This document shows positions 1,185-42,869 of a stretch of 44,049 bases of DNA, piece after piece (position 1 is the first letter of the stretch; every line of letters starts with the position of its first letter). The notes below the pieces were generated by a model. That model worked only from the letters and a program-made list of their open reading frames with translations. It was not told the DNA's origin and did not search any database. The position numbers and the translations under genes were made by a program. The DNA lies in contig JAGWND010000003.1 of NCBI GenBank assembly GCA_028873075.1, positions 1 to 44,049 on the forward strand, given 5' to 3'. The DNA comes from Bacteroidota bacterium. GTDB lineage: Bacteria > Bacteroidota > Ignavibacteria > UBA10030 > UBA8401.

Positions 1185-2300
1185 TCACCATTCGAGCGTT
1201 TCGCCGATCATCATCAGCCAATAATTTTCGGGCGAAAGATTTTTTCTTTTCATCTCGTCGCGGAAACGTTTCGGCGGTTCGTCAATCGGCTCGTCGGTCA
1301 GCTTGAATGTTCCCCAATGCACTGCTAACATAATTTTTCCTTTCAAATCGCTGTTTGCCTTTATCGCTTCTTCAGGCGTCATGTAAATCTGGTGCATCAG
1401 CTCTGCCGGTTCGTATCCGCCGATGGGAAGAATTGTCAGGTCGAAAGGACCGAATCTGCTGCCAATTTCTTCGAAGCCGGTAAAGTAGCCGGAGTCGCCG
1501 CAGAAGTAGAGCCGCTTTTCTTTTCCCCAGAGAACGAACGATGCCCATAATGTTTCGTCGCGGTCGGTCAGCCATCGCCCGGAAGAATGCTGCGCCGGCG
1601 TGCAGATGATTTTTATTCCTTTGTAGGTCGTTCCTTCCCACCAGTCAAGCTCCTGCACATTGGAAATTCCGATGTCTTCCAGTTTGTCGCGCAGGCGCAG
1701 CGGCACAATAAAACGTGTAGCCTTGTTTTGCGCTAACTTCATCAGCGTTTCTTTGTCGAAGTGATCGTAATGGTTATGCGAGATAATGACAAGGTCAATG
1801 GGTGGAAGTTTGTCGAATGCAATGCCGGGGTCAACTGCACGCGGAGCGCCTGCCCAGCTTACCGGGCCGAGCCTGCCGCTCCACACCGGATCGGTGAGGA
1901 TATTTTTTCCTTCACATTGAATGAGCACTGTTGATTGCCCCACCCACGTAACGGTGTATGGTTTGTTTTGCGCGATGAGCGATCCATCGTTGGATACGTG
2001 CGGCGTTTCAGCGGTTGCCGTGGAAAACGGCGCCGTGAATTTTTCGATGAACCACGGAACATACCGCGTGAACGGAATTTCTTTGAATGCCGGATCGGGA
2101 TTTTTAAATCCCCCTTCGATTGTGTGGGAGGGCGTGTTATTCGTTTGCGCGGAAAGAGGGATGACGAATAGAACCAGTGATGCCGAGAGGAATTGGATGA
2201 ATGGATAAATGGATTGATGAATTGACGACCTTAAATTTTCCAGTAATCCAATAATCCAACAATGCAGCGATGCATTCGCTTTTTGTTGTCTCGGCATCAT
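1185..2300 (-). CDS. MBL-fold metallo-hydrolase, NAPE-PLD/RomA-like, probably exported
   Basis: Motifs LTDPVW, SHNHYDH (HxHxDH), PAQHSSGR, GDSGY, HWGTF; hydrophobic segment ending PLSA-Q. Start codon uncertain. Confidence 0.9.
   Translation of the reverse strand: MMPRQQKANASLHCWIIGLLENLRSSIHQSIYPFIQFLSASLVLFVIPLSAQTNNTPSHTIEGGFKNPDPAFKEIPFTRYVPWFIEKFTAPFSTATAETPHVSNDGSLIAQNKPYTVTWVGQSTVLIQCEGKNILTDPVWSGRLGPVSWAGAPRAVDPGIAFDKLPPIDLVIISHNHYDHFDKETLMKLAQNKATRFIVPLRLRDKLEDIGISNVQELDWWEGTTYKGIKIICTPAQHSSGRWLTDRDETLWASFVLWGKEKRLYFCGDSGYFTGFEEIGSRFGPFDLTILPIGGYEPAELMHQIYMTPEEAIKANSDLKGKIMLAVHWGTFKLTDEPIDEPPKRFRDEMKRKNLSPENYWLMMIGETLEW
2194..2262. repeat. Inverted octamer arrays (TGGATNNA)n ... (TCCANNAA)n
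   Basis: tggatgaa tggataaa tggattga tgaattga ... tccagtaa tccaataa tccaacaa. Confidence 0.65.
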
Positions 2301-2348
2301 CGTGGTTAAAAAATACGAAAAATAAATCGTAGAAGTTGCGCCTGCACG

Positions 2349-2377
2349 TTGACAAACCGCTCTAAATTTCTTACACT
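2349..2377 (+). promoter_or_regulatory. Sigma70-type promoter for the herA-like gene
   Basis: TTGACA (2349..2354), 17-bp spacer, TACACT (2372..2377). Confidence 0.7.
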
Positions 2378-2393
2378 AACGCAAGCTCTATTT

Positions 2394-2420
2394 GTAGGGC
2401 AAAGCGCCGCTTCGCCCTAC
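2394..2420. repeat. GTAG-type REP-like palindrome
   Basis: GTAGGGC-AAAGCGCCGCTTC-GCCCTAC: perfect 7-bp outer stem plus inner AAGCG/CGCTT. Confidence 0.65.
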
Positions 2421-2458
2421 TGTTCCAATGAGAACTCTTCAACAGTACCGGTACATAC

Positions 2459-23407: not shown

Positions 23408-24061
23408 ATGCCAAGCATCAGCGTCGAAGATTATCTTAAGCACATCTATTACCTCGGAGAAAAAGGCGGTGCTGTAACGACGTCGTTGTTAGCCGCGGAG
23501 CTGAAGATTGCCGCCGCTTCCGTAACGGATATGGTGAAGAAGCTTTCCGGGCAGAAATATCTCCGCCATTCGCCGTACCGCGGCGTTCAGCTTACGGAAA
23601 AAGGGCGCCGCTCTGCGCTGAAAATTATCCGCAAGCACCGGCTGTGGGAAATGTTTCTTTCGGAGGTGCTCCATTTCCGCTGGGATGAAATTCACGAAGA
23701 AGCGGAAAAGTTCGAACACATTATGTCGGAAAAAATGGAGGATAAGATTGATGAAGTGCTCGGCTTTCCGCGCGTTGATCCTCACGGCGATCCGATTCCC
23801 GCAAAAGACGGCACCGTGAAAACCATCGTGGCGTTTCCGCTTTCCAACGCTGAGGAGGGAACAACGGTGCGCGTTCTCCGCGTGAATGACGCGAATCCGG
23901 AACTGCTTCAGTATGTTTCGAGCATCGGGCTTTCGCTGAATAAAAAACTGGGCATCAAACAGCGGATCAAGTTTGATAATTCGCTGGTCATCAAAATCGG
24001 CTCGAAGGAAATGACGATCAGCTCGCTTGCCGCAGAGAATATTTTTGTCGAATCGGTGTAA
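23408..24061 (+). CDS. mntR: DtxR/MntR-family metal-dependent repressor with C-terminal FeoA domain
   Basis: EDYLK.IY, SVTDMVKKL, RKHRLWEMFL, HEEAEKFEH, DPHGDPIP; adjacent to mntH. Confidence 0.93.
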   Translation: MPSISVEDYLKHIYYLGEKGGAVTTSLLAAELKIAAASVTDMVKKLSGQKYLRHSPYRGVQLTEKGRRSALKIIRKHRLWEMFLSEVLHFRWDEIHEEAEKFEHIMSEKMEDKIDEVLGFPRVDPHGDPIPAKDGTVKTIVAFPLSNAEEGTTVRVLRVNDANPELLQYVSSIGLSLNKKLGIKQRIKFDNSLVIKIGSKEMTISSLAAENIFVESV

Positions 24062-24066
24062 GAAGT

Positions 24067-25452
24067 ATGACTTTTGAGCAGAAAAAAACTCCGGACCATC
24101 TCTCACTTGAAGGAATACACGGCACAATCGAAGTGCCGCATCATCAATCCGGTTTCTGGCAGCAATGGAAAGCATTTGTCGGTCCCGCACTTCTCGTCAG
24201 CGTCGGTTATATGGATCCGGGAAACTGGGGAACCGATCTGATGGGAGGCGCTCAGTTCAAATACAGCCTGCTCTGGGTTGTCGGTTTGGCAAGCTTGATG
24301 GCGATTTTCATGCAGGTGATTTCCGCTCGCTTAGGTGTGGTAACAGGAAAAGATCTTGCGCAAGCATGCCGCGATTGGTATCCGCGCTGGACTCGCTGGC
24401 CTAACTGGCTTCTGAGCGAACTGGCAATCGGCGCGTGCGATTTGGCGGAAGTGTTGGGAAGCGCAGTCGCGCTGAATCTGCTGTTTCATATTCCGCTCCT
24501 CTGGGCTGTCATCATTACCGGTTTCGATGTGTTGATGTTGTTGGCTCTGCAGCGTTTCGGCATGCGCACGATTGAAGCGATAGTGCTTGTGCTGATATCA
24601 ACGATCGCCGTTTGTTATTTTATAGAAATTTTTGTTTTGCCGGAAACTCAACCCAGCTTTTTGGAAATGGGAAAAGCGTTGGTAAGTCCGACCTTCCGCC
24701 AAATCGGAATGATCTACATTGCGATCGGCATTATCGGTGCGACCGTAATGCCTCATAATCTGTATCTTCATTCAGCACTCGTGCAGAGCCGCAAATTGCA
24801 GAAGGACGACACCTCAATCAAACAAGGGATTCGTTTCAATACTATTGATTCTGTCGTTGCGCTGACGATCGCCTTTTTTGTGAACGCAGCAATTCTGGTG
24901 CTTGCCGCGTTGGTTTTCTACGGGAAAACGAGCGTTACAACGGCAGGTGGAGAAGTGGTGAAATTTGTTGCCGACAGCGATTGGATCCGCGTTGCGTATC
25001 TCACGCTTGCCCCCTTGCTTGGGACGGCGGCGGCGAGTACATTATTTGCAATAGCGCTGTTGGCAAGCGGTCAAAGCAGCACCATTACCGGAACGCTTGC
25101 CGGTCAGGTTGTGATGGAAGGCTTCATGCATTGGAGATTGAAGCCGTGGGTGCGTCGTCTTATCACACGCACGCTGGCAATTCTTCCGGCAATTTTTATT
25201 ATCGGCATACGCGGCGAGAGCAGTGTAACGGATCTGTTGACGCTAAGCCAATTCGTGCTGGCGCTCCAGCTTCCGTTTGCGATGTTTCCGCTGCTTCACT
25301 TTACAAGCTCGAGAAAACGAATGGGAAAATGGAAGAACGGCTGGCTGTTGATGATGCTCGGGTGGGGAAGCGCGCTGTTGATTACGGCAATGGACGTGTA
25401 CGGTTTGCCTGAGTCGCTTGCGGCAGCATGGCATGTTATCATCGGCGGATAA
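24067..25452 (+). CDS. mntH: NRAMP-family Mn2+/Fe2+ transporter
   Basis: VGYMDPGNW, GATVMPHNLYLHS, SGQSST.TGT.AGQ.VMEGF. Confidence 0.95.
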   Translation: MTFEQKKTPDHLSLEGIHGTIEVPHHQSGFWQQWKAFVGPALLVSVGYMDPGNWGTDLMGGAQFKYSLLWVVGLASLMAIFMQVISARLGVVTGKDLAQACRDWYPRWTRWPNWLLSELAIGACDLAEVLGSAVALNLLFHIPLLWAVIITGFDVLMLLALQRFGMRTIEAIVLVLISTIAVCYFIEIFVLPETQPSFLEMGKALVSPTFRQIGMIYIAIGIIGATVMPHNLYLHSALVQSRKLQKDDTSIKQGIRFNTIDSVVALTIAFFVNAAILVLAALVFYGKTSVTTAGGEVVKFVADSDWIRVAYLTLAPLLGTAAASTLFAIALLASGQSSTITGTLAGQVVMEGFMHWRLKPWVRRLITRTLAILPAIFIIGIRGESSVTDLLTLSQFVLALQLPFAMFPLLHFTSSRKRMGKWKNGWLLMMLGWGSALLITAMDVYGLPESLAAAWHVIIGG

Positions 25453-25509
25453 TATTTTCTTTTACCGCGAAAACATCCCGCTTGAGCGCGATCAACTTCG
25501 GCACAAAGA

Positions 25510-25600
25510 AATTGAAAATTGAGAGTTGAATATTGAACATTGAGAATTTCTTTCTGCCTAAGTTACATTTTTCAAAATGTTCAATAAACAATGCTCAATA
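25510..25600. repeat. Inverted heptamer arrays
   Basis: aattgaa aattgag agttgaa tattgaa cattgag ... tgttcaa taaacaa tgctcaa. Confidence 0.65.
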
Positions 25601-25621
25601 AGACACGAAAAAAGGAATAGC

Positions 25622-26038
25622 GTGTACAAAACAATCCTTGTAACGTTAGACGGCACGCCGACCGACAGGGCAATCATCGAACATGTGAAGCAGCTCGCAG
25701 CGCTGGCGAAGAGCCGCGTTGTGCTGTTACATGTTGCCGATGGCTGGGCAGCCCGCACATTTGGCTCGGATGCTGTTGGTCCGGAAGTTGCGGAGGACAT
25801 TGCTTATCTTGAAAAAGTGAAGTCGGAATTGACCGCAAATGGCATTCCAGCCGAAGCGGAACTTGCATACGGCGAACCGGCCGCAGAAATTGTGAAGTGG
25901 GTGAAAAAAGGGAATTGCGATCTTGTCGCGATGAGCACGCACGGCCACCGCTTTGTCGCCGATTTGTTTCTCGGTGCAACGGCAACGCGCGTGCGGCACG
26001 GGGTGGATGTTCCAGTGTTGCTTCTTAAAGCGAAGTAA
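25622..26038 (+). CDS. Universal stress protein (UspA family)
   Basis: GTG start after AAGGA; YKTILV.LDG, GEPA.EI, DLVAMSTHG, G....V......PVLL. Confidence 0.9.
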   Translation: MYKTILVTLDGTPTDRAIIEHVKQLAALAKSRVVLLHVADGWAARTFGSDAVGPEVAEDIAYLEKVKSELTANGIPAEAELAYGEPAAEIVKWVKKGNCDLVAMSTHGHRFVADLFLGATATRVRHGVDVPVLLLKAK

Positions 26039-26057
26039 TATCGGAGGTGGAAGAAAT

Positions 26058-26945
26058 TTGTCCCCCGCGCGTCAATCGTTGAATTACAATAGGCTCTTTG
26101 GCTATGGAGTTGTCTTCAATGTTTCGTACATCATTGTCGAGATTGTGTACGGCCTTCGCATTGATTCCATGGCGCTTCTTGCCGACGCCGGACATAACTT
26201 TGGCGACGTGTTGAGCTTAATGCTGGCATGGGGCGCGACTTCTCTGGCAAAAACAGCAGCGACAAAAAACCGGACGTACGGATTAAGAAAATCTACAATT
26301 TTAGCTTCCTTGTTTAATGCGATTATTCTCTTGATTGTTGTTGGTGCAATTGCAATTGAATCATTAAGAAAAATTTTTGAACCGCAGTCCGTGGGTGGAA
26401 TGACGATGACGATTATCGCAGGCGTGGGAGTGGTTGTCAATACGCTGACGGCGTTGTTGTTTGTGAAGGGAAGGAAATCCGATTTGAATATGAAAGCGGC
26501 GTTTCTTCACATGGCGGCAGATGCGGGAATTTCATTAGGCATTGTTGTAGCAGGATTGTTTATCATCATGACAGGTTACGTTCTTCTCGATCCGATTGTC
26601 GGTCTTGCGATTATCATTGTCATCACCGCGGGGACGTGGAACCTGCTCAAAGATTCAGTTCACCTTTCTATGGATGCCGTTCCGAGAGATATTGATGTAG
26701 AGAACGTCAAAAAATTTCTCACGTTGCTCGATGGTGTAGAAGAAGTTCACGATCTTCATGTTTGGGCGATGAGCACGACTGAAACTGCTCTCACCGCTCA
26801 TCTTGTTATGCCGCGCGAACACCACGACGATAAATTTTTGGGTAACGTGTGCGGTCAATTGTACGAAAAGTTCGGCATCGAACATTCCACAATCCAAGTC
26901 GAAAGGAACGCGCAAAGCGCAAGCTGCGCAAAGGATAAGGTGTAG
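26058..26945 (+). CDS. Cation diffusion facilitator (CzcD/ZitB-like; Zn/Co/Cd)
   Basis: SMALLADAGHNFGD, TYG..K, AFLHMAAD, VHDLHVW, H.TIQ.E; TTG start after GGAGG. Confidence 0.92.
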   Translation: MSPARQSLNYNRLFGYGVVFNVSYIIVEIVYGLRIDSMALLADAGHNFGDVLSLMLAWGATSLAKTAATKNRTYGLRKSTILASLFNAIILLIVVGAIAIESLRKIFEPQSVGGMTMTIIAGVGVVVNTLTALLFVKGRKSDLNMKAAFLHMAADAGISLGIVVAGLFIIMTGYVLLDPIVGLAIIIVITAGTWNLLKDSVHLSMDAVPRDIDVENVKKFLTLLDGVEEVHDLHVWAMSTTETALTAHLVMPREHHDDKFLGNVCGQLYEKFGIEHSTIQVERNAQSASCAKDKV

Positions 26946-33665: not shown

Positions 33666-34658
33666 TTAATCTTCCGGCGGAGCTTGCAGCATGTTGCTGA
33701 GAAATACGCCCCCTCTGCTCACCATCTGTTCTCCGGGTCTAAGTCCATCGAGGATTTGGTATTCGTCGTCTCGCTGCAATCCTACTGTCACCTTTCTCTG
33801 GACGAAGCGGCAGCGGTCTGTCGTTACCCAGACGGTTAACGTACCGTCGCCTTCACGCACGATACCCGTAACAGGAATTGTTACAGCTTTTTTCTTGTCG
33901 CCGAAAAAATGTGCTGTTCCGAACATTCCGGCGCGGAGTTTGTTCTCAAGATTCGAAAGAATGATTCGGACTTTCGCGGTTCTCGTTGTTGGATCAATGA
34001 CATCGCCGATGGAGGAGACCTTTCCAATGAAGCGTTCTGCGGGATATGCGTTACACTCAATTTCAACTTTTGAGTTCGTTTTGATATTGGTGAGCTGTCC
34101 TTCTGGGACTTCGGCGGCAACGATCACCGTTCCTGCAGCCGTTTGCTCGAGCACCTTCGGATCAATTCCAGCAGCACGCAACTGGCTTTCTTTCTGTGCC
34201 ATATCTGCCTGCGATTGGTTGTAGTCTGTTTGTGCGTCGAGCAATTCTTTTTCTGCGATGGCTTTGTCTTTTGTCAAATCTTCCAAACGGCGGTAATTTT
34301 TTGACGAGCGCTCGACGGCAGAAACGCTTTTTACAAAATCGGCATACAATTGCGTTAAGTCCGGCGTTTCAAAAAGGTATACGTTGCCGTTTCCGAATTC
34401 GGAGCGCGCGATGCTCACAGCAAAATGCGCCGGAGCCGTAAACTCGGTTTGAATAGTTTCTTCGTGTACCGTATCAATGGTGAATTGTTGAAGCTGAAGC
34501 GAATTCGGTGAGAAAACAATTTCGTTTTCATCGTTCAGCACCTGCGGCGCTGAGATGTTTCGTCCCGAAGCCGCCCGGGCTTCATCTGAGCGATTGCATG
34601 ACTGTAATGCTAATCCATCCAAAATTATCAGCATGGGAATTAAAATTCTCGTGATCAT
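33666..34658 (-). CDS. RND efflux periplasmic adaptor (CzcB-like)
   Basis: AEVPE, IDP.TRT.KVR, LRAGMF, GL.PGE; lipoprotein-like N-terminus; GAGGA SD. Confidence 0.88.
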   Translation of the reverse strand: MITRILIPMLIILDGLALQSCNRSDEARAASGRNISAPQVLNDENEIVFSPNSLQLQQFTIDTVHEETIQTEFTAPAHFAVSIARSEFGNGNVYLFETPDLTQLYADFVKSVSAVERSSKNYRRLEDLTKDKAIAEKELLDAQTDYNQSQADMAQKESQLRAAGIDPKVLEQTAAGTVIVAAEVPEGQLTNIKTNSKVEIECNAYPAERFIGKVSSIGDVIDPTTRTAKVRIILSNLENKLRAGMFGTAHFFGDKKKAVTIPVTGIVREGDGTLTVWVTTDRCRFVQRKVTVGLQRDDEYQILDGLRPGEQMVSRGGVFLSNMLQAPPED

Positions 34659-34876
34659 ATCTTTTCCTCGATAAAGCCTAATACATTCTTTTTAATACAA
34701 CTGAAGAATCAAACTTGTATGTGAAACCGTTTCAGCGGTTTTTCACTATGCAAGCGTTAATGCGGCATTTTTATTCATTCGAACGGAGAATGGATAAAAA
34801 TAACGAGCGCTTGTACCGGCACAAAACAACCGGCGCAACCAAGTCTAAAAAAGGAAATGGAAACTGGAGAAAAAGA

Positions 34877-35284
34877 TTAGATGAGAAATTCGCAGTGGAG
34901 CAGGTACAGCGGTAACGCGGAAATATGAGAAATACAATGAACGTTCTGCTCAACAGGGAGGATGCTTATACTCTGATCTACTAGTGCCGGATCTGCTGCA
35001 AGGGAGGGGCTGTCCAAATCTACAATTTGTATTGTGTGCCGGCGTGCAGCGTGCAGCGGAGTGAGAGATAGCTTCAGCTGAATAAGTGATTTTGCATTTT
35101 GAAGCTCCTCGCTGTTTATCGCCGCGTTGCCCGATTCCTCTGAAATGCCGACTTCCTCGGGGTGGCTTACACTGGTTCCCGGCAAAACATCGTCGAGATT
35201 TGCGAAATCAGCGAAGAACGTGGCGATAAAGAACCACGTTACCAGTGTCAACAAATTCGATTTTTTAAAGCAGAGGGTCATCAT
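34877..35284 (-). CDS. Small leader-like membrane/exported protein heading the czcBAC-type operon
   Basis: 135-aa ORF with N-terminal hydrophobic helix, scattered His, and C-terminus HCISHISALPLYLLHCEFLI; strong promoter immediately upstream. Confidence 0.65.
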   Translation of the reverse strand: MMTLCFKKSNLLTLVTWFFIATFFADFANLDDVLPGTSVSHPEEVGISEESGNAAINSEELQNAKSLIQLKLSLTPLHAARRHTIQIVDLDSPSLAADPALVDQSISILPVEQNVHCISHISALPLYLLHCEFLI

Positions 35285-35302
35285 ATTTGAGCATCAAACG
35301 TA

Positions 35303-35333
35303 CAAATATACGCTGCCGCTGCGTGGTTGTCAA
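35303..35333 (-). promoter_or_regulatory. Promoter for the leader ORF + czcBAC
   Basis: Minus strand TTGACA (35333..35328), 17 bp, TATATT (35310..35305); also fits TAnnTTTG. Confidence 0.75.
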
Positions 35334-35402
35334 GGTTTGTTTGCTGAAGAAAAAGCGCTGATCACTTCACAGCATATACATGCATTGCAAATTAGTCGAA
35401 TG

Positions 35403-36902
35403 CTATTGCACAACAAACATTTTCTTTTCCCTGTCCCACAGTAAACGCGCACGATTTTTTCCCCACCACGTTTGGACTTTTGCAACATCCTTCACAGAAA
35501 ATGAAATTGGAATATGGCTTTGCAGATGATCGTGTGCGTCATCGGCGAAAATTCCGCCGTCCTGAATAAGGCGAATCATCGCCGGAATTGCGTCGGCATC
35601 TCCCAGCTCAAGTGCGGTTTCCAAAAACTGGATTTGCATCTCGGGGTCGTCCTCCGACTTCGACGCCTCGACAAGTTTTTTCGCGGAAACACCGTCGCCG
35701 AATGTCTTCACTGCAACAAGCACGCTTTGTTGAACGTCGTCTGATTTGTCGTTGAGAAGCGGAACGATCTGAGCTTCCGCTGAAGCGACGCGCGATTTCG
35801 TTAACAGGTCCACTGCGGCTTTACGCACTTCGGAATCTTCATCGTGAAGAGCTTTTGTAACAAGCGGAATCCATTCTTGTTGCTGTGCGGGAAACGAAGC
35901 AAGCATGTGAATACCCGATTGTCTTTCTGTGCTCGCTTGACTCTGAAGCAAATGCAATGCGTGTTCGAGAGGATCTTCTGCAGGTTTGCGGAAGAAAAAA
36001 ACACCCGCAATAAAAATTGCAACGACAGCAGCAGCCGACGCGAGATTTCTAACTGCAATAGAAACACGCTCCGCCGTTTTGATGTAGCGGTACATTCCGC
36101 TTATCAGTAAACCGGCTGCGAGCAAAACAACAACCAAGGGGCTTGTCGGAAGTCCGGTGTTCCACGAAAGCTTCACGCCGATGAAGCTGATGATCGCACT
36201 TCCGATCCAGCCGATTGCGAGCCGCGTGCTGAGTTTATCGGAAAGCATCATTGCTCCGACGGACGGAATGACGAGGTAGCTGAAGACGAGAAACACCCCC
36301 GCAATTGCCACTGAACTTGTGATGACGAATCCGAACGACATATAAAAGAGAAAATCCCATAAGCGGACATTGATGCCGCCCGCTTCCGCTCTTGCAGGAT
36401 CGAACGAGATTGCCATGAACTTTTTCCGGAAGATGAAATGGAACAACCCGACAATCGAATAAATGATTGCTGTTTTGATAACGACGTGGCCCTGTACCCA
36501 GAGCAGATCGCCTTTAATGATGTGATCGAGTTCCTGCGGACCGAGCGCGCTTTTTGAAAGGATCAGAATTGTTGCCGCGAACGTTACGGCATAGACAATG
36601 CCAATGATCGCTTCGTGCGGTACTTTTTCGCTCTTCATGCGTGTGGCGGAAAAGATGAACGCGCCGAAAATCGTGAATGCAAGCGAGTAAAGATACAATG
36701 CTGTAATATCCGTGCCAACTTCGTAACCGAGCAGCACGCCGATGACTGTTCCTAATGCGGCAATTTGCGCCAACGCAAGATCAACGAAAATGACTTTTCG
36801 TGCGACAACGTGAACACCTAAATAGACATGAATGCCGGTGAGCACGAGGCACGCCAGCAGCGGCCAGATCATTGTTGAGGGCAAATAGAAAAGTTGTTCC
36901 AT
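35403..36902 (-). CDS. ZnuB/MntB-type metal ABC permease fused to C-terminal HEAT-like repeats
   Basis: FVDLALAQIAALG, EAIIGIVY, SFDPARAEAGG, AGVFLVFSYLVIP; then LHDEDSEVRKAAVDLL and LLNDKSDDVQQ. Confidence 0.88.
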   Translation of the reverse strand: MEQLFYLPSTMIWPLLACLVLTGIHVYLGVHVVARKVIFVDLALAQIAALGTVIGVLLGYEVGTDITALYLYSLAFTIFGAFIFSATRMKSEKVPHEAIIGIVYAVTFAATILILSKSALGPQELDHIIKGDLLWVQGHVVIKTAIIYSIVGLFHFIFRKKFMAISFDPARAEAGGINVRLWDFLFYMSFGFVITSSVAIAGVFLVFSYLVIPSVGAMMLSDKLSTRLAIGWIGSAIISFIGVKLSWNTGLPTSPLVVVLLAAGLLISGMYRYIKTAERVSIAVRNLASAAAVVAIFIAGVFFFRKPAEDPLEHALHLLQSQASTERQSGIHMLASFPAQQQEWIPLVTKALHDEDSEVRKAAVDLLTKSRVASAEAQIVPLLNDKSDDVQQSVLVAVKTFGDGVSAKKLVEASKSEDDPEMQIQFLETALELGDADAIPAMIRLIQDGGIFADDAHDHLQSHIPISFSVKDVAKVQTWWGKNRARLLWDREKKMFVVQ

Positions 36903-39828: not shown

Positions 39829-40188
39829 TTAGGCAGTCACGAAAGGAGGGCCGCGATGGAAATACGGCGATAAAACTTCAAAGGAAACTGCAGGAACAAA
39901 AGTGATATAGGGAAGGTAAAATGCTTTCTCTTCAGGCTGAACTGTGAACACGGCCGTCGGCATGAATGCTCTGCCGAAAATCCCTGAGCATACGGCACAT
40001 GTTTCGGTATGCGAGAGGTCAATATGGTGACAATGAGCAGCATCCGCGTGTGTTGAGACAGTCTCATATCCCGTGCCTATAACAAATATTGCTTCATAGT
40101 CGCGGTGAATGGGCACAAGAATAACCATACCCACGACGTAAAACGCGAGCACCCACGACGAAAGCTTTTTATTGATACGGGAAATCAT
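39829..40188 (-). CDS. DUF2946/CruR-like leader protein (TM, His cluster, CxxC, C-terminal RGPP)
   Basis: 119 aa from MISRINKK; hydrophobic helix ending in H; THADAAHCHHIDLSHTETCAVC; ends YFHRGPPFVTA; 72 bp upstream of the porin ATG. Confidence 0.8.
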   Translation of the reverse strand: MISRINKKLSSWVLAFYVVGMVILVPIHRDYEAIFVIGTGYETVSTHADAAHCHHIDLSHTETCAVCSGIFGRAFMPTAVFTVQPEEKAFYLPYITFVPAVSFEVLSPYFHRGPPFVTA

Positions 40189-40307
40189 TGATGCATAAAA
40201 GATACAACATTCTAAACCAAATACAAGGAAAAAGGTTCCGCTTTGCGACATGATTTTTTATTGCACGAAGAAACCTTCAAAGTAAAAAGAAGGTTATATC
40301 ATCAGGC

Positions 40308-40730
40308 ATGAATGTTATTGCTAAATACTTCGGTGTCGGGCTGGCGGTTGTGCTGTTATCAGCAAACGGATTTTTTACAGCCTTCGCTCCGGACTTGCGC
40401 CATCACAACAGTGTAAAGAAGGCTTCAATGCAGATGTGCAGTTGCTATTCCGGCGATGAGGCAATGACGTGTTCATGCTGTTGCGCGAAGCATCGCTCAC
40501 ATACTGCAGCGTGCACTTCGTGTGAATTTTCTTCTGCGCCATGCGCAAATCCTATTGCCGCCGTTTCACCGAATGTTCTTGATCCTGCAGTTCAAACGCA
40601 ATCGAAAGAGCAAGACATTCTGCTTGGTACGAGATCGGAAAAATTTCCGGTGCTCGCTATATTGCTTCTTTCACGGACACAAGACCCGCTTTTCCATCCC
40701 CCGCAATCCTTTTCACACATCTTTTCATAA
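40308..40730 (+). CDS. Cys-rich leader-like protein with C-terminal FHPP, upstream of a TonB-dependent receptor
   Basis: N-terminal hydrophobic segment; 9 Cys in CSC...CSCCC...CTSC...C; ends DPLFHPPQSFSHIFS. Confidence 0.75.
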   Translation: MNVIAKYFGVGLAVVLLSANGFFTAFAPDLRHHNSVKKASMQMCSCYSGDEAMTCSCCCAKHRSHTAACTSCEFSSAPCANPIAAVSPNVLDPAVQTQSKEQDILLGTRSEKFPVLAILLLSRTQDPLFHPPQSFSHIFS

Positions 40731-40792: not shown

Positions 40793-40898
40793 CAGCGAAA
40801 ATGAAATAAAGATATCAGCGGCTCGAAAACGCCGTCAGGTATCATTACGTTGAGCAATGATAAATTTTTCTTTGCGGTACTTAACGAAAGAAATCTCT

Positions 40899-42869
40899 AT
40901 GCGTTGGTATGTTATCAGTGCGCTGGTGTGTTTCCTTTTTTCAACGGCGTGGTCGGAAGATTCGCCGCCGGATACATCAGCCAAAGTTGTTCAGCTCCCA
41001 GAGGTAACGATTACTTCCGCTCCTGTCGCTCGCGAATTGCCGGTGAGTTCGGTAGTCGTTTCTCCGGTGGCGATTCAAAGAACCGTTGCGACAGATTCGT
41101 GGGATCTTCTTCGTCAAACTACGGGAATTGAAGTTCATGAACAGGGACAAGGACCCGGCTTCGCATCGGATGCATCCATCCGCGGCTTCAGCTCTGATCA
41201 CTCGACCGACCTCGCGCTTTGGATTGACGGAGTGCCGGTGAACGAGCCGATTAACGGACACGCGGAAGGATACAATGATTTCAGCCTTCTGATGCCGGAA
41301 GCGATCCACTCGCTCAATCTCATCAAAGGACCGACCAGCGCGCTGTACGGCAATTTTTCTATGGCAGGCGTGGTAAATGTTCGGACGCTTGAACGCATGG
41401 ACGGAACGGACATTCGTGTTTCCGGCGGCACGTTCGGCAAGCTGGAAGGATCTGCATTGAGCGGTTTTGATAACGGTAGCAGCAGCGGAGTATTCGGCAT
41501 TCGCGGCATTCAGAATCAGGGTTGGCGGCCGAACAGCCAGTACGATCTTGAACAAGCACATGCTCGGTATTTGCAGAATGTATTTTCCGATGCAACGATT
41601 GATGCCGGGGTGGAATTGTACTCTGCCAATTGGCATTCTCCCGGCTCGCTTACTGCGGCACAGTTCGCTCAACGCCAGTATAATGTTGTCGCGAACTCAA
41701 CTGACGGCGGATACAAACGCCGCGCACAGGAACGAGTGAGTTTGAGATTTTCTCCCGACTCCATCATGTTCTGGCGGACGACTATTTTTGCTACACAGGG
41801 GCGCTGGCAGCTTTTTCTCACAACGCCGCCGGAAGGTGGATTGACAGAAGGCTCCGGAAATCAAACGGAAGAAGAGGACAAGCGTTACGGTCTTGGCGGA
41901 ACAAGCGCGTTGACATGGCAGTTTCCGCAGAGTGAAATTACTGTCGGTGTAGAAGGAAAGCTCGATCATTCGAATTACGAGAACTGGTTTACAACCAATC
42001 GGGAAAGAGATTCAGCGCAGATACTCGTTTCGGCACGGCAGAGTGCCGGAGCGTTCTTTTTTCAATCGGAAGAAAATGTCGGCGATGCAAAGTTCACTCT
42101 CGGCGGACGTTATGATATTCTCAGTGTAGAATCTGTACCGGAAGGTGGCGGAACGTTGAATAATGCCAAGGGAATTTTTTCTCCGAAGCTCGGCGTAATG
42201 TATTCCTTTCCCGAAAACTTTTCCGTCTATGCAAACATCTCGCGCGGATTTCGCTCAACAGATGGTACAATAGAAGATCCATCGCTGCCGTTCATCACCG
42301 CATGGGCATACGAGACAGGAACAAAATTCGATGCAGATGTTGCCAGCGGCAGTGTTGCGCTCTTTCGGATGAATGTGAGCAACGAACAGACATTCGACCC
42401 TGTTACGCTCACTTCAACAAACGGGGGAAAAAGCCGCAGGCAAGGAGTGGAAGTGTCGGCGATGATTCGCTTTACAAATCAGGTTCGTTTCATCACTGAT
42501 GTAACGTTCAACGATGCACGTTATGAAAATTTAATTACGGAAGGTGGGGACACGCTTTCCGGTGCACGCGTGTACAACACGGCAAAATGTGTCGGCGATG
42601 CCGCGCTCGACGTTGTTCCGAACGCTCAGTGGCAGTTCCGTCTCAATTCGGATATTGTCGGTCCCTATAGTCCGTTTGATGAACCGGGAGTAGTGTTGCC
42701 GCCGTACGTTATTTTTTCGATGACAATCGGTACACATATCGGCGATGCATTTCTTCAGTTGGGAATCAAGAATCTTGCGGACAAAGCGTACCCCGAATTG
42801 CGTGCAGGCGGATTTGTCAATCCCGGTCAACCGCGCACGTTGTACGGAACAGCGTCGTATTCGTTTTAG
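40899..42869 (+). CDS. TonB-dependent outer-membrane receptor
   Basis: Signal peptide; TonB-box-like LPEVTIT; plug motifs IRGF, IDGVPVN, IKGP.SALYG...AGVVN; C-terminal NL.DK.Y...PG.PRT....SYSF. Confidence 0.95.
   Translation: MRWYVISALVCFLFSTAWSEDSPPDTSAKVVQLPEVTITSAPVARELPVSSVVVSPVAIQRTVATDSWDLLRQTTGIEVHEQGQGPGFASDASIRGFSSDHSTDLALWIDGVPVNEPINGHAEGYNDFSLLMPEAIHSLNLIKGPTSALYGNFSMAGVVNVRTLERMDGTDIRVSGGTFGKLEGSALSGFDNGSSSGVFGIRGIQNQGWRPNSQYDLEQAHARYLQNVFSDATIDAGVELYSANWHSPGSLTAAQFAQRQYNVVANSTDGGYKRRAQERVSLRFSPDSIMFWRTTIFATQGRWQLFLTTPPEGGLTEGSGNQTEEEDKRYGLGGTSALTWQFPQSEITVGVEGKLDHSNYENWFTTNRERDSAQILVSARQSAGAFFFQSEENVGDAKFTLGGRYDILSVESVPEGGGTLNNAKGIFSPKLGVMYSFPENFSVYANISRGFRSTDGTIEDPSLPFITAWAYETGTKFDADVASGSVALFRMNVSNEQTFDPVTLTSTNGGKSRRQGVEVSAMIRFTNQVRFITDVTFNDARYENLITEGGDTLSGARVYNTAKCVGDAALDVVPNAQWQFRLNSDIVGPYSPFDEPGVVLPPYVIFSMTIGTHIGDAFLQLGIKNLADKAYPELRAGGFVNPGQPRTLYGTASYSF

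Follow-up and report, generated by a model that had tools for sequence, protein, structure and literature searches.

A 44,049-nt stretch of DNA from a Bacteroidota bacterium (contig JAGWND010000003.1, positions 1 to 44,049; here called the window) carries a 135-aa open reading frame (ORF), P0001, followed on the minus strand by the genes of a heavy-metal efflux pump of the resistance-nodulation-division (RND) type. Based on sequence and relatives, this small ORF is a genuine gene of a conserved, order-restricted family of small, probably exported or membrane-anchored proteins heading heavy-metal RND operons. Its stop region is predicted to pair with the translation-initiation region of the first pump gene, which encodes the periplasmic adaptor. 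The modelled folds suggest that ribosomes arriving at the end of the small ORF gate translation of the adaptor, and probably that of the whole pump, a reading to which we give slightly less than an even chance. We infer co-transcription, gating and any pausing from the features set out below. The locus was laid out as follows.

35333-35305, minus strand: sigma-70-like promoter, TTGACA-17-TATATT (consensus scan, 11 of 12 matches)
35284-34877, minus strand: small ORF P0001, an open reading frame of 135 aa that ends LYLLHCEFLI and then TAA
between the small ORF stop and the adaptor gene, minus strand: spacer of 218 nt
34658-33666, minus strand: periplasmic adaptor (membrane fusion protein, MFP), czcB-like (HlyD_D23, 1.6e-19; TIGR01730, 113 bits against a cutoff of 94.9)
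33651-30418, minus strand: CusA/CzcA-family heavy-metal RND permease (TIGR00914, 874.7 bits against a cutoff of 701.45)
30414-28918, minus strand: outer-membrane efflux protein (OEP; Pfam family OEP; TIGR01845, 7.2e-127)

An original prediction, made from the sequence of the window, had described the promoter, the 135-aa ORF with its LYLLHCEFLI end, the 218-nt spacer and then the adaptor gene, and all of these were found. The promoter was the sole promoter-like site in 34300-35700, a region for which shuffled sequences averaged 1.8 matching sites. Transcription starting behind it would give a 5' untranslated region of about 14 nt, with no Shine-Dalgarno (SD) sequence, before the small ORF. One mRNA from this promoter probably carries both the small ORF and the adaptor gene. 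A consensus scan of the spacer, confined to sigma-70-type promoters, found neither a terminator-like site nor another promoter-like site, and the only Rfam hit in 34300-35700 at E<=1 was a chance snoRNA match. Contigs from three runs, compared at 80% likeness for population variants, showed no differences. The adaptor gene product has a lipoprotein-like N-terminus; the RND permease gene begins 14 nt past the adaptor gene and the OEP gene 3 nt past the RND gene, giving the order small ORF, MFP, RND, OEP.

At the stop of the small ORF, AUCUUUUUCUC (34877-34867) pairs with GAGGAAAAGAU (34669-34659) over 11 bp with one G-U pair, exactly the pairing that had been predicted between the stop region and the SD. 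In both the minimum free energy (MFE) and the centroid folds of 34900-34640, these 11 bp formed the core of an interrupted 22-bp helix (3+5+3+11) in which the pairing continues across the AUG into the opening codons of the adaptor gene. The parts of this structure are listed below.

34891-34889 with 34644-34642, minus strand: helix segment, GAA with UUU
34887-34883 with 34650-34646, minus strand: helix segment, UUCUC with GAGAA
34882-34880 with 34656-34654, minus strand: helix segment, AUC with GAU (the G of the AUG plus AU)
34891-34867, minus strand: 5' strand of the helix, comprising the last three sense codons, the stop codon and the next 10 nt
34669-34642, minus strand: 3' strand of the helix, comprising the SD GAGGA with its spacer (34669-34659), the G of the AUG and adaptor codons 2-5
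34834-34815, 34813-34751, 34746-34721 and 34716-34674, minus strand: four internal spacer hairpins, enclosed by the long-range helix

The 3' strand is therefore the translation-initiation region of the adaptor gene. Its SD, GAGGA at -11 to -7, fits the G-enrichment of the genome at -12 to -8; the 5-mer SD core occurs at 19% of genome starts compared with 3.9% in a control region, and SDs at such spacing are in use. The fold that had been suggested as a check clearly favoured the helix: the 11 core pairs had mean probabilities of 0.96-0.99 in eight contexts of 225 to 841 nt, the longest being the whole 5' part of the putative transcript. The 261-nt fold had a z-score of -3.15, and one of 200 shuffles folded as well. 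The small hairpins foreseen in the spacer were also present, numbering four in the fold rather than two.

To place the pairing against its background, the whole stop-region:start-region duplex was ranked among the junctions of same-strand adjacent ORFs in the genome with gaps of 40-400 nt. At -18.7 kcal/mol it came 8th of 1074 junctions, and none of 300 composition-matched shuffles was as good (z -4.6 to -4.8). The in-context pairing mass was 19.7, a value reached by none of 330 background junctions (29 of the 330 reached a mass of 8). The strong signal came solely from the full stop-region and initiation-region windows; narrower post-stop versus pre-start windows gave shuffle p values of 0.03-0.037. 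Long-range pairing of the SD was as strong or stronger in 19 of 450 sampled genes, and the pairedness of the SD was matched or exceeded by 65 of the 450.

On the basis of established ribosome footprints, a ribosome holding the stop codon in the A site was modelled as covering roughly 34894-34867, and the 5' strand of the helix (34891-34867) falls within this stretch. The cost of opening the adaptor mRNA from -14 to +15 was 14.7 kcal/mol when the upstream strand was free, a cost as high or higher in 21 of 200 genome genes. With 34894-34867 blocked, it fell to 5.7 kcal/mol, compared with a genome median of 9.0. A ribosome modelled ten codons upstream had no effect on opening. In the mechanism that we propose, the four spacer hairpins would bring both helix strands together on the shared mRNA, and while the helix stands the adaptor initiation region would be poorly accessible. 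A ribosome finishing the small ORF would cover the 5' strand and free the initiation region. Since the 5' strand lies under the terminating ribosome and the helix over the start, translation of the adaptor would be gated both by small-ORF translation and by how long the ribosome dwells at the end of that ORF. The same gating would probably extend to the closely abutting RND and OEP genes.

In rpmI-rplT of Escherichia coli and in the coat-replicase region of phage MS2, translation is coupled by long-range mRNA pairing: the downstream initiation region is held by pairing with a distant upstream translated segment. As in those systems, upstream translation would here open a sequestered start region; the difference is that the upstream strand lies exactly at the stop of a metal-operon small ORF, which would allow control by dwell time, that is, by a pause.

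Several results weigh against this gating. The original prediction that a ribosome at the end of the leader would free the SD was supported by the favoured helix and by the fall in opening cost, and less well by the SD itself: even when the 5' strand was blocked, no more than 25% of the ensemble had the SD unpaired, because the pyrimidine-rich tract after the stop supplies weaker back-up partners. The 11-bp core taken alone is not unusual: of 1634 gene starts, 53 had a helix of at least 11 bp between -16 to -1 and the upstream 230 nt, and 384 had a duplex energy at least as good, the core being A/U-rich. Even for the full duplex, seven other junctions of the genome score as well (-18.7 to -22.9 kcal/mol), so that the pairing could have arisen by chance. 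The 218-nt spacer also exceeds the <100 nt typical of the CutF-like genes discussed below.

The relatives of the small ORF add to these doubts. Genomic context was compared at 46 unique loci, each followed within 700 nt by an ORF of 150 aa or longer, and pairing at 45 of them, L021 being left aside for its 27-nt spacer. Conservation of the pairing across homologous loci had been put forward as a check, and the pairing was mostly not conserved: a pairing mass of at least 8 was found in 10 of the 45 relatives (29 of 330 background junctions), comparable pairing being absent from the other 35. A shuffle p<=0.05 was obtained at four loci (L001, L027, L002 and L068), with a mean z of -0.5 over the set, and with narrower windows two of the 45 beat their shuffles, with a mean z of +0.2. 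Some cases of pairing may be hidden, as the downstream start codons of relatives were assigned mechanically. Both same-genus genomes (G001 and G002) were without the small ORF, the operon and a close adaptor homologue, which marks the operon as accessory. Eight of the 45 relatives lay below the genome 5th percentile of duplex energy, a count confounded by base composition and relatedness. In L002 and L027, the same UUUCUCAUC codons were paired with AUGAUGAGAA of an OEP gene, which looks like an independent instance of the design.

The seven comparable junctions of the genome are located on G000 contigs C179, C284, C316 and C137. They may be further coupling devices.

Turning to the protein, P0001 belongs to an uncharacterised family whose proteins are about 135 aa long (median 135), so that the original label of 'leader ORF' understated a full member of a conserved family with three motifs. 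A profile search returned 183 clusters at E<=1e-3, 118 of them at E<=1e-10, nearly all of 125-140 aa and matching end to end. One homologue, P0002, encoded on an 81-kb metagenome contig, was 64% identical, and further relatives showed 30-38% identity. The family features are an N-terminal hydrophobic helix, FADxANLDDLxPGxxVxHxDE, DQDSPSLAA and a C-terminal L[YHF][LI]xx[CRH][TS]LL[IL]; in P0001 these correspond to a hydrophobic helix at residues 10-28, FADxANLDDxxPGxxVxH, DxDSPSLAA and the C-terminal LYLLHCEFLI, encoded as follows.

34909-34880, minus strand: codons of the conserved motif L-Y-L-L-H-C-E-F-L-I, with the stop codon directly after

In 141 of 150 profile-matching representatives, the C-terminal motif lay no more than one residue from the protein end. 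The hydrophobic helix of P0001 has KK before it and may be a signal peptide. Conserved positions in the family include His41 and, among the acidic-motif positions, D26, N29, D32, D89 and D91; a C-terminal Cys is frequent. The AlphaFold2 model of P0001 showed helices at residues 10-28 and 123-134 only, with the rest at a predicted local distance difference test score (pLDDT) <50 and a mean pLDDT of 48.7. Atlas structure matches for P0001 all had a template-modelling (TM) score <0.5. P0001 had no Pfam or NCBIfam match, and 86 family members had no Pfam match at E<=0.01. PF28586 (DUF8440) was annotated on 24% of the members in one Atlas look-alike cluster; this is a lead only, the model being absent from the Pfam copy searched, and no mention of DUF8440 was found in the literature. 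The family was present in 57 of 277 genomes of one order (25 of 110 genera) and in seven genomes of a 401-genome phylum sample, all seven from the same order.

These properties would also suit a protein that acts in trans, assisting the pump from the periplasm or the membrane, for example as a CzcI-like quencher or an acidic disordered metal buffer, the helix then being a by-product of a pyrimidine-rich 3' flank and a purine-rich SD. We consider this unlikely, while giving it appreciable weight. Three motifs conserved along the whole protein, full-length matches in 183 clusters and an N-terminal hydrophobic helix leading into an acidic, His-containing, disordered body are what such an accessory might be expected to show, and the lack of the helix in most relatives and the seven equally good junctions would follow if the pairing were fortuitous. 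A by-product sits poorly with a duplex that was better than 300 of 300 composition-matched shuffles, with a register that suits a terminating ribosome and with the recurrence of the same design at two other small ORFs of the window; a role in trans is, moreover, compatible with gating in cis. Should the helix be fortuitous, the finding would come down to a new family of small accessory proteins in the efflux operons of acid-mine-type bacteria.

The gene neighbourhood bears on the same question. Across the 46 loci, the downstream gene encoded an OEP in 31, an HlyD_D23 adaptor in two and a DUF2279 protein in three, with no family assigned in 10. The small ORF thus stood directly before efflux OEP or adaptor genes in 33 of the 46. 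The adaptor-first loci were the window and L067, whose adaptor was 47% identical. The adaptor gene lay behind the OEP gene wherever the sequence of relatives reached far enough, and the usual order is therefore small ORF, OEP, MFP, with the small ORF in the czcI position.

CzcI of Cupriavidus metallidurans pMOL30 resides in the periplasm and quenches CzcCBA; its gene is transcribed both as czcI and as czcICBA (PMC10127602). The resemblance to czcI noted originally was upheld for position, in that a small gene lies immediately before a heavy-metal RND operon and most relatives are ordered like czcI-czcC-czcB, as a trans-acting quencher would have it. It failed for sequence: hhalign of the family profile (A4) against pMOL30 CzcI gave a probability of 0.6% (E 0.091), hence no homology. 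CzcI is also His/Cys-rich, whereas the present family is acidic with a hydrophobic C-terminal motif, and the window has the order small ORF, MFP, RND, OEP.

At L067, the small ORF and the adaptor gene are separated by a 129-aa ORF (2069-2458, plus strand) that runs into the adaptor start. This ORF has a signal-like N-terminus, belongs to no Pfam family and lacks a counterpart in the window. The possibility that the spacer of the window is the remnant of a lost gene was rejected, as this 129-aa ORF matched the window spacer only at E 6.2 and blastn against all family loci returned only 19 nt, at the end of the small ORF.

A closer functional parallel to the proposed gating is found in CutF of Rhodobacter capsulatus, a small Sec-exported DUF2946-like protein (PMC9973294) that is reported to be undetectable in vivo. 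The SD of cutO is shielded by a stem-loop whose unfolding needs cutF to be translated in cis, a CxxxC motif and a proline-rich C-terminus (PMC9973294). CutF-like genes are defined by a length of <150 aa, a signal peptide, PP in the last 15 residues and a same-strand neighbour; frequent neighbours are OEP, ACR_tran and HlyD_D23, and intergenic distances are mostly <100 nt (PMC9973294). P0001 is alike in its length of <150 aa, its putative N-terminal export-type segment, its conserved C-terminus and the metal-homeostasis gene downstream on the same strand (the adaptor gene, at 218 nt, where CutF-like neighbours are allowed up to 1000 nt). It is also alike, in silico, in having mRNA structure over the SD of the next gene that a ribosome at the ORF end could reach. 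It differs in the lack of a proline-rich motif in the last 15 residues, of CxxxC and of a detectable relation to DUF2946, and in having a 218-nt spacer with a long-range helix in place of a short local stem-loop.

P0001 has no PP in its 15 C-terminal residues, ISALPLYLLHCEFLI, in agreement with the earlier observation that the C-terminus has no RAPP-like motif; PP occurred in the last 15 residues of two of 141 family members, and CxxC or CxxxC in seven of the 141. No Pfam match to DUF2946 (PF11162) was found in P0001 or 86 members, and hhalign against the DUF2946-like ORF of the window gave 0.1%; CutF itself was not compared. Without PP, CxxxC or homology, P0001 is not CutF-like as defined. 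By analogy, it may nevertheless work like CutF. If the gating is real, the CutF principle, by which translation of a small exported ORF opens the next ribosome-binding site (RBS), would be widened beyond its current definition to Zn/Co/Cd-type pumps, to long-range rather than local RNA structure, and to a family that the published PP and Cys/His filters cannot find. An uncharacterised family would thereby gain a concrete, testable role.

The pause itself could come from the nascent chain. P0001 might represent a proline-less class of CutF/CruR-like sensors. Its exported, N-proximal acidic/His motif would detect metal in the periplasm during translation; its C-terminal L[YH]LxxCxLLI would arrest the ribosome on the stop codon, and the adaptor SD would be released by that arrest. 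Metal-sensing arrest is plausible only by analogy, and this complete scheme is doubtful. The architecture agrees with that of CutF-like proteins (<150 aa, a hydrophobic N-terminus with a motif just behind it, a conserved extreme C-terminus and a place before OEP, HlyD_D23 or ACR_tran genes) (PMC9973294), and the scheme would accommodate the adjoining of motif and stop in 141 of 150 representatives and the largely disordered prediction for the protein. The scarcity of PP (2 of 141) and of CxxC or CxxxC (7 of 141), the lack of DUF2946 or any other Pfam match in 86 members and hhalign probabilities of 0.1-0.2% against the PP-type ORFs of the window all count against it, and we know of no arrest motif similar to LYLxxCxLLI.

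Heavy-metal RND pumps are usually described as being under two-component or MerR/ArsR-type control. A scan of window ORFs turned up no two-component, MerR or ArsR regulator next to the operon, as would be expected if the small ORF took the part of a sensor, and two canonical PP-type small ORFs are present in the same window. The following features were identified there.

39829-40251, minus strand: ORF of 140 aa; hydrophobic N-terminus, HCHH...CAVC cluster, RGPP located 6 residues before the end
40308-40730, plus strand: 140-aa Cys-rich ORF with a signal-like N-terminus, a Cys/His cluster and HPP near the C-terminus
40857-42869, plus strand: TonB-dependent receptor gene, 126 nt past the Cys-rich ORF

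The first of these ORFs had a sub-threshold match to DUF2946 (E 5.7e-4, 21.1 versus 23.7 bits), and no further DUF2946 genes were found in the genome. It heads a gene cluster that includes ZnuA. A 451-aa gene follows, whose SD and AUG are paired with the final codons and stop of this ORF (-16.8 kcal/mol, pairing mass 13.4; none of 300 shuffles did as well). These features give the ORF the look of a canonical CutF/CruR-type leader at the head of the ZnuA/ABC-3 block. For the Cys-rich ORF, nt 8-17 after the stop pair with the 8 nt before the receptor AUG in both MFE and centroid folds, with a shuffle p of 0.04 and a pairing mass of 7.5-9.6; its arrangement with the receptor gene is like that of CruR-BfrG. 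Both PP-type ORFs thus share the stop-region:start-region pairing design with P0001, and no relation of the P0001 family to them was detected (hhalign probabilities 0.1-0.2%).

A further feature of the small ORF lies directly after its stop. The pyrimidine-rich tract that had been noted in the spacer was present and proved to be family-wide.

34876-34847, minus strand: pyrimidine-rich, G-poor tract, 27 of 30 pyrimidines (Y), with further anti-SD-like UUUCC repeats

Over the first 25 nt, the tract of the window had a Y of 0.88, a value reached by 4 of 1993 genome post-stop controls. In the family (52 unique tracts, from loci among L001-L082), the 25 nt after the stop had a mean Y of 0.72 and a G of 0.15, compared with a Y of 0.49 in 154 other ORFs of the same loci and of 0.48 at the 1993 genome post-stop sites. 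The G-poor zone extends from about -30 to +30 around the stop, with G of 0.07-0.14 from -30 to +14; its upstream half reflects Leu and Ile codons. The Mann-Whitney p for the tract makes the difference look more significant than it is, because the relatives are not independent. The tract might act as a reservoir of anti-SD sequence or as a place where Rho loads, and whatever the mechanism it is a new, checkable feature of the family.

The second of these functions would amount to a different kind of control. CruR of Bordetella pertussis and TnaC of E. coli stall at stop codons and shield an adjacent Rho utilization (Rut) site (PMC12360218). In the same way, a ribosome lingering at the stop of the small ORF could shield the tract from Rho, which would otherwise terminate transcription in the long spacer. 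We judge this improbable. The conserved peptide running to the stop, the pyrimidine-rich, G-poor tract beginning there and the long untranslated spacer are shared with these precedents, of which CruR is metal-responsive (PMC12360218), and both the tract (Y 0.72 versus 0.49 and 0.48) and the long spacers (73-356 nt in 40 of 45 loci; outliers of 53, 438 and 546) hold across the family. P0001 differs in its 135-aa length, its export-type N-terminus, the lack of RAPP and a tract that is partly base-paired, the role of Rho being putative. In the window, the first 11 nt of the tract are predicted to be paired, and its pyrimidines are mostly U, not C. Leu and Ile codons of the motif also account for some of the signal, and the relatives are not independent samples.

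Gating by the helix, action in trans, the arrest variant and the Rho variant overlap one another. In a bolder reading, the family might consist of new proline-less co-translational periplasmic metal sensors for Zn/Co/Cd-type RND pumps. The N-terminal segment would export the nascent chain, and the acidic/His motif just past it would bind metal while the invariant L[YH]LxxCxLLI is in the exit tunnel. The altered termination or release time would set how long flanking RNA stays under the terminating ribosome, either unmasking the pump RBS (in this genome and some relatives) or hiding the Rho-loading tract (family-wide). The odds seem to us to lie well against this proposal; if true, the sensor class would cover the family, with its 183 clusters, in one bacterial order.

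The spacers of the relatives were also structured. In the best-sampled genus (g4), the spacer hairpins were conserved, with compensatory changes at 18 of 40 predicted pairs; the consensus RNA structure of the g4 spacers contained no stop:start helix. The approximately 250-nt spacers between the small ORF and the OEP gene of L002, L004, L006, L007, L010, L011, L024 and L032 (alignment A3) all come from one genus and had conserved hairpins with compensatory changes. Some 25 nt ahead of the OEP start they share a TTCATTTGCATCA-like motif, which pairs with the region of the start codon. This spacer also accompanied the small ORF in L003, L009 and L026, despite a different next gene. No Rfam families were found in the spacers of 15 related loci. 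At L064, a match to the Moco/tungsten (molybdenum/tungsten cofactor) riboswitch lay at 2131-2228 (plus strand; 38.5 bits, gathering score 36), on the strand opposite to the small ORF.

Other metal genes were located on both sides of the pump operon. A metal-uptake block on the minus strand includes a ZnuA-type binding protein (38382-37315) and a 499-aa ABC-3 permease fused to HEAT repeats (36902-35403). The permease also forms part of a metal island around the operon, together with genes at 23408-26945 on the plus strand for a DtxR-type repressor with a FeoA domain, an Nramp protein, a universal stress protein and a cation diffusion facilitator (CDF) exporter.

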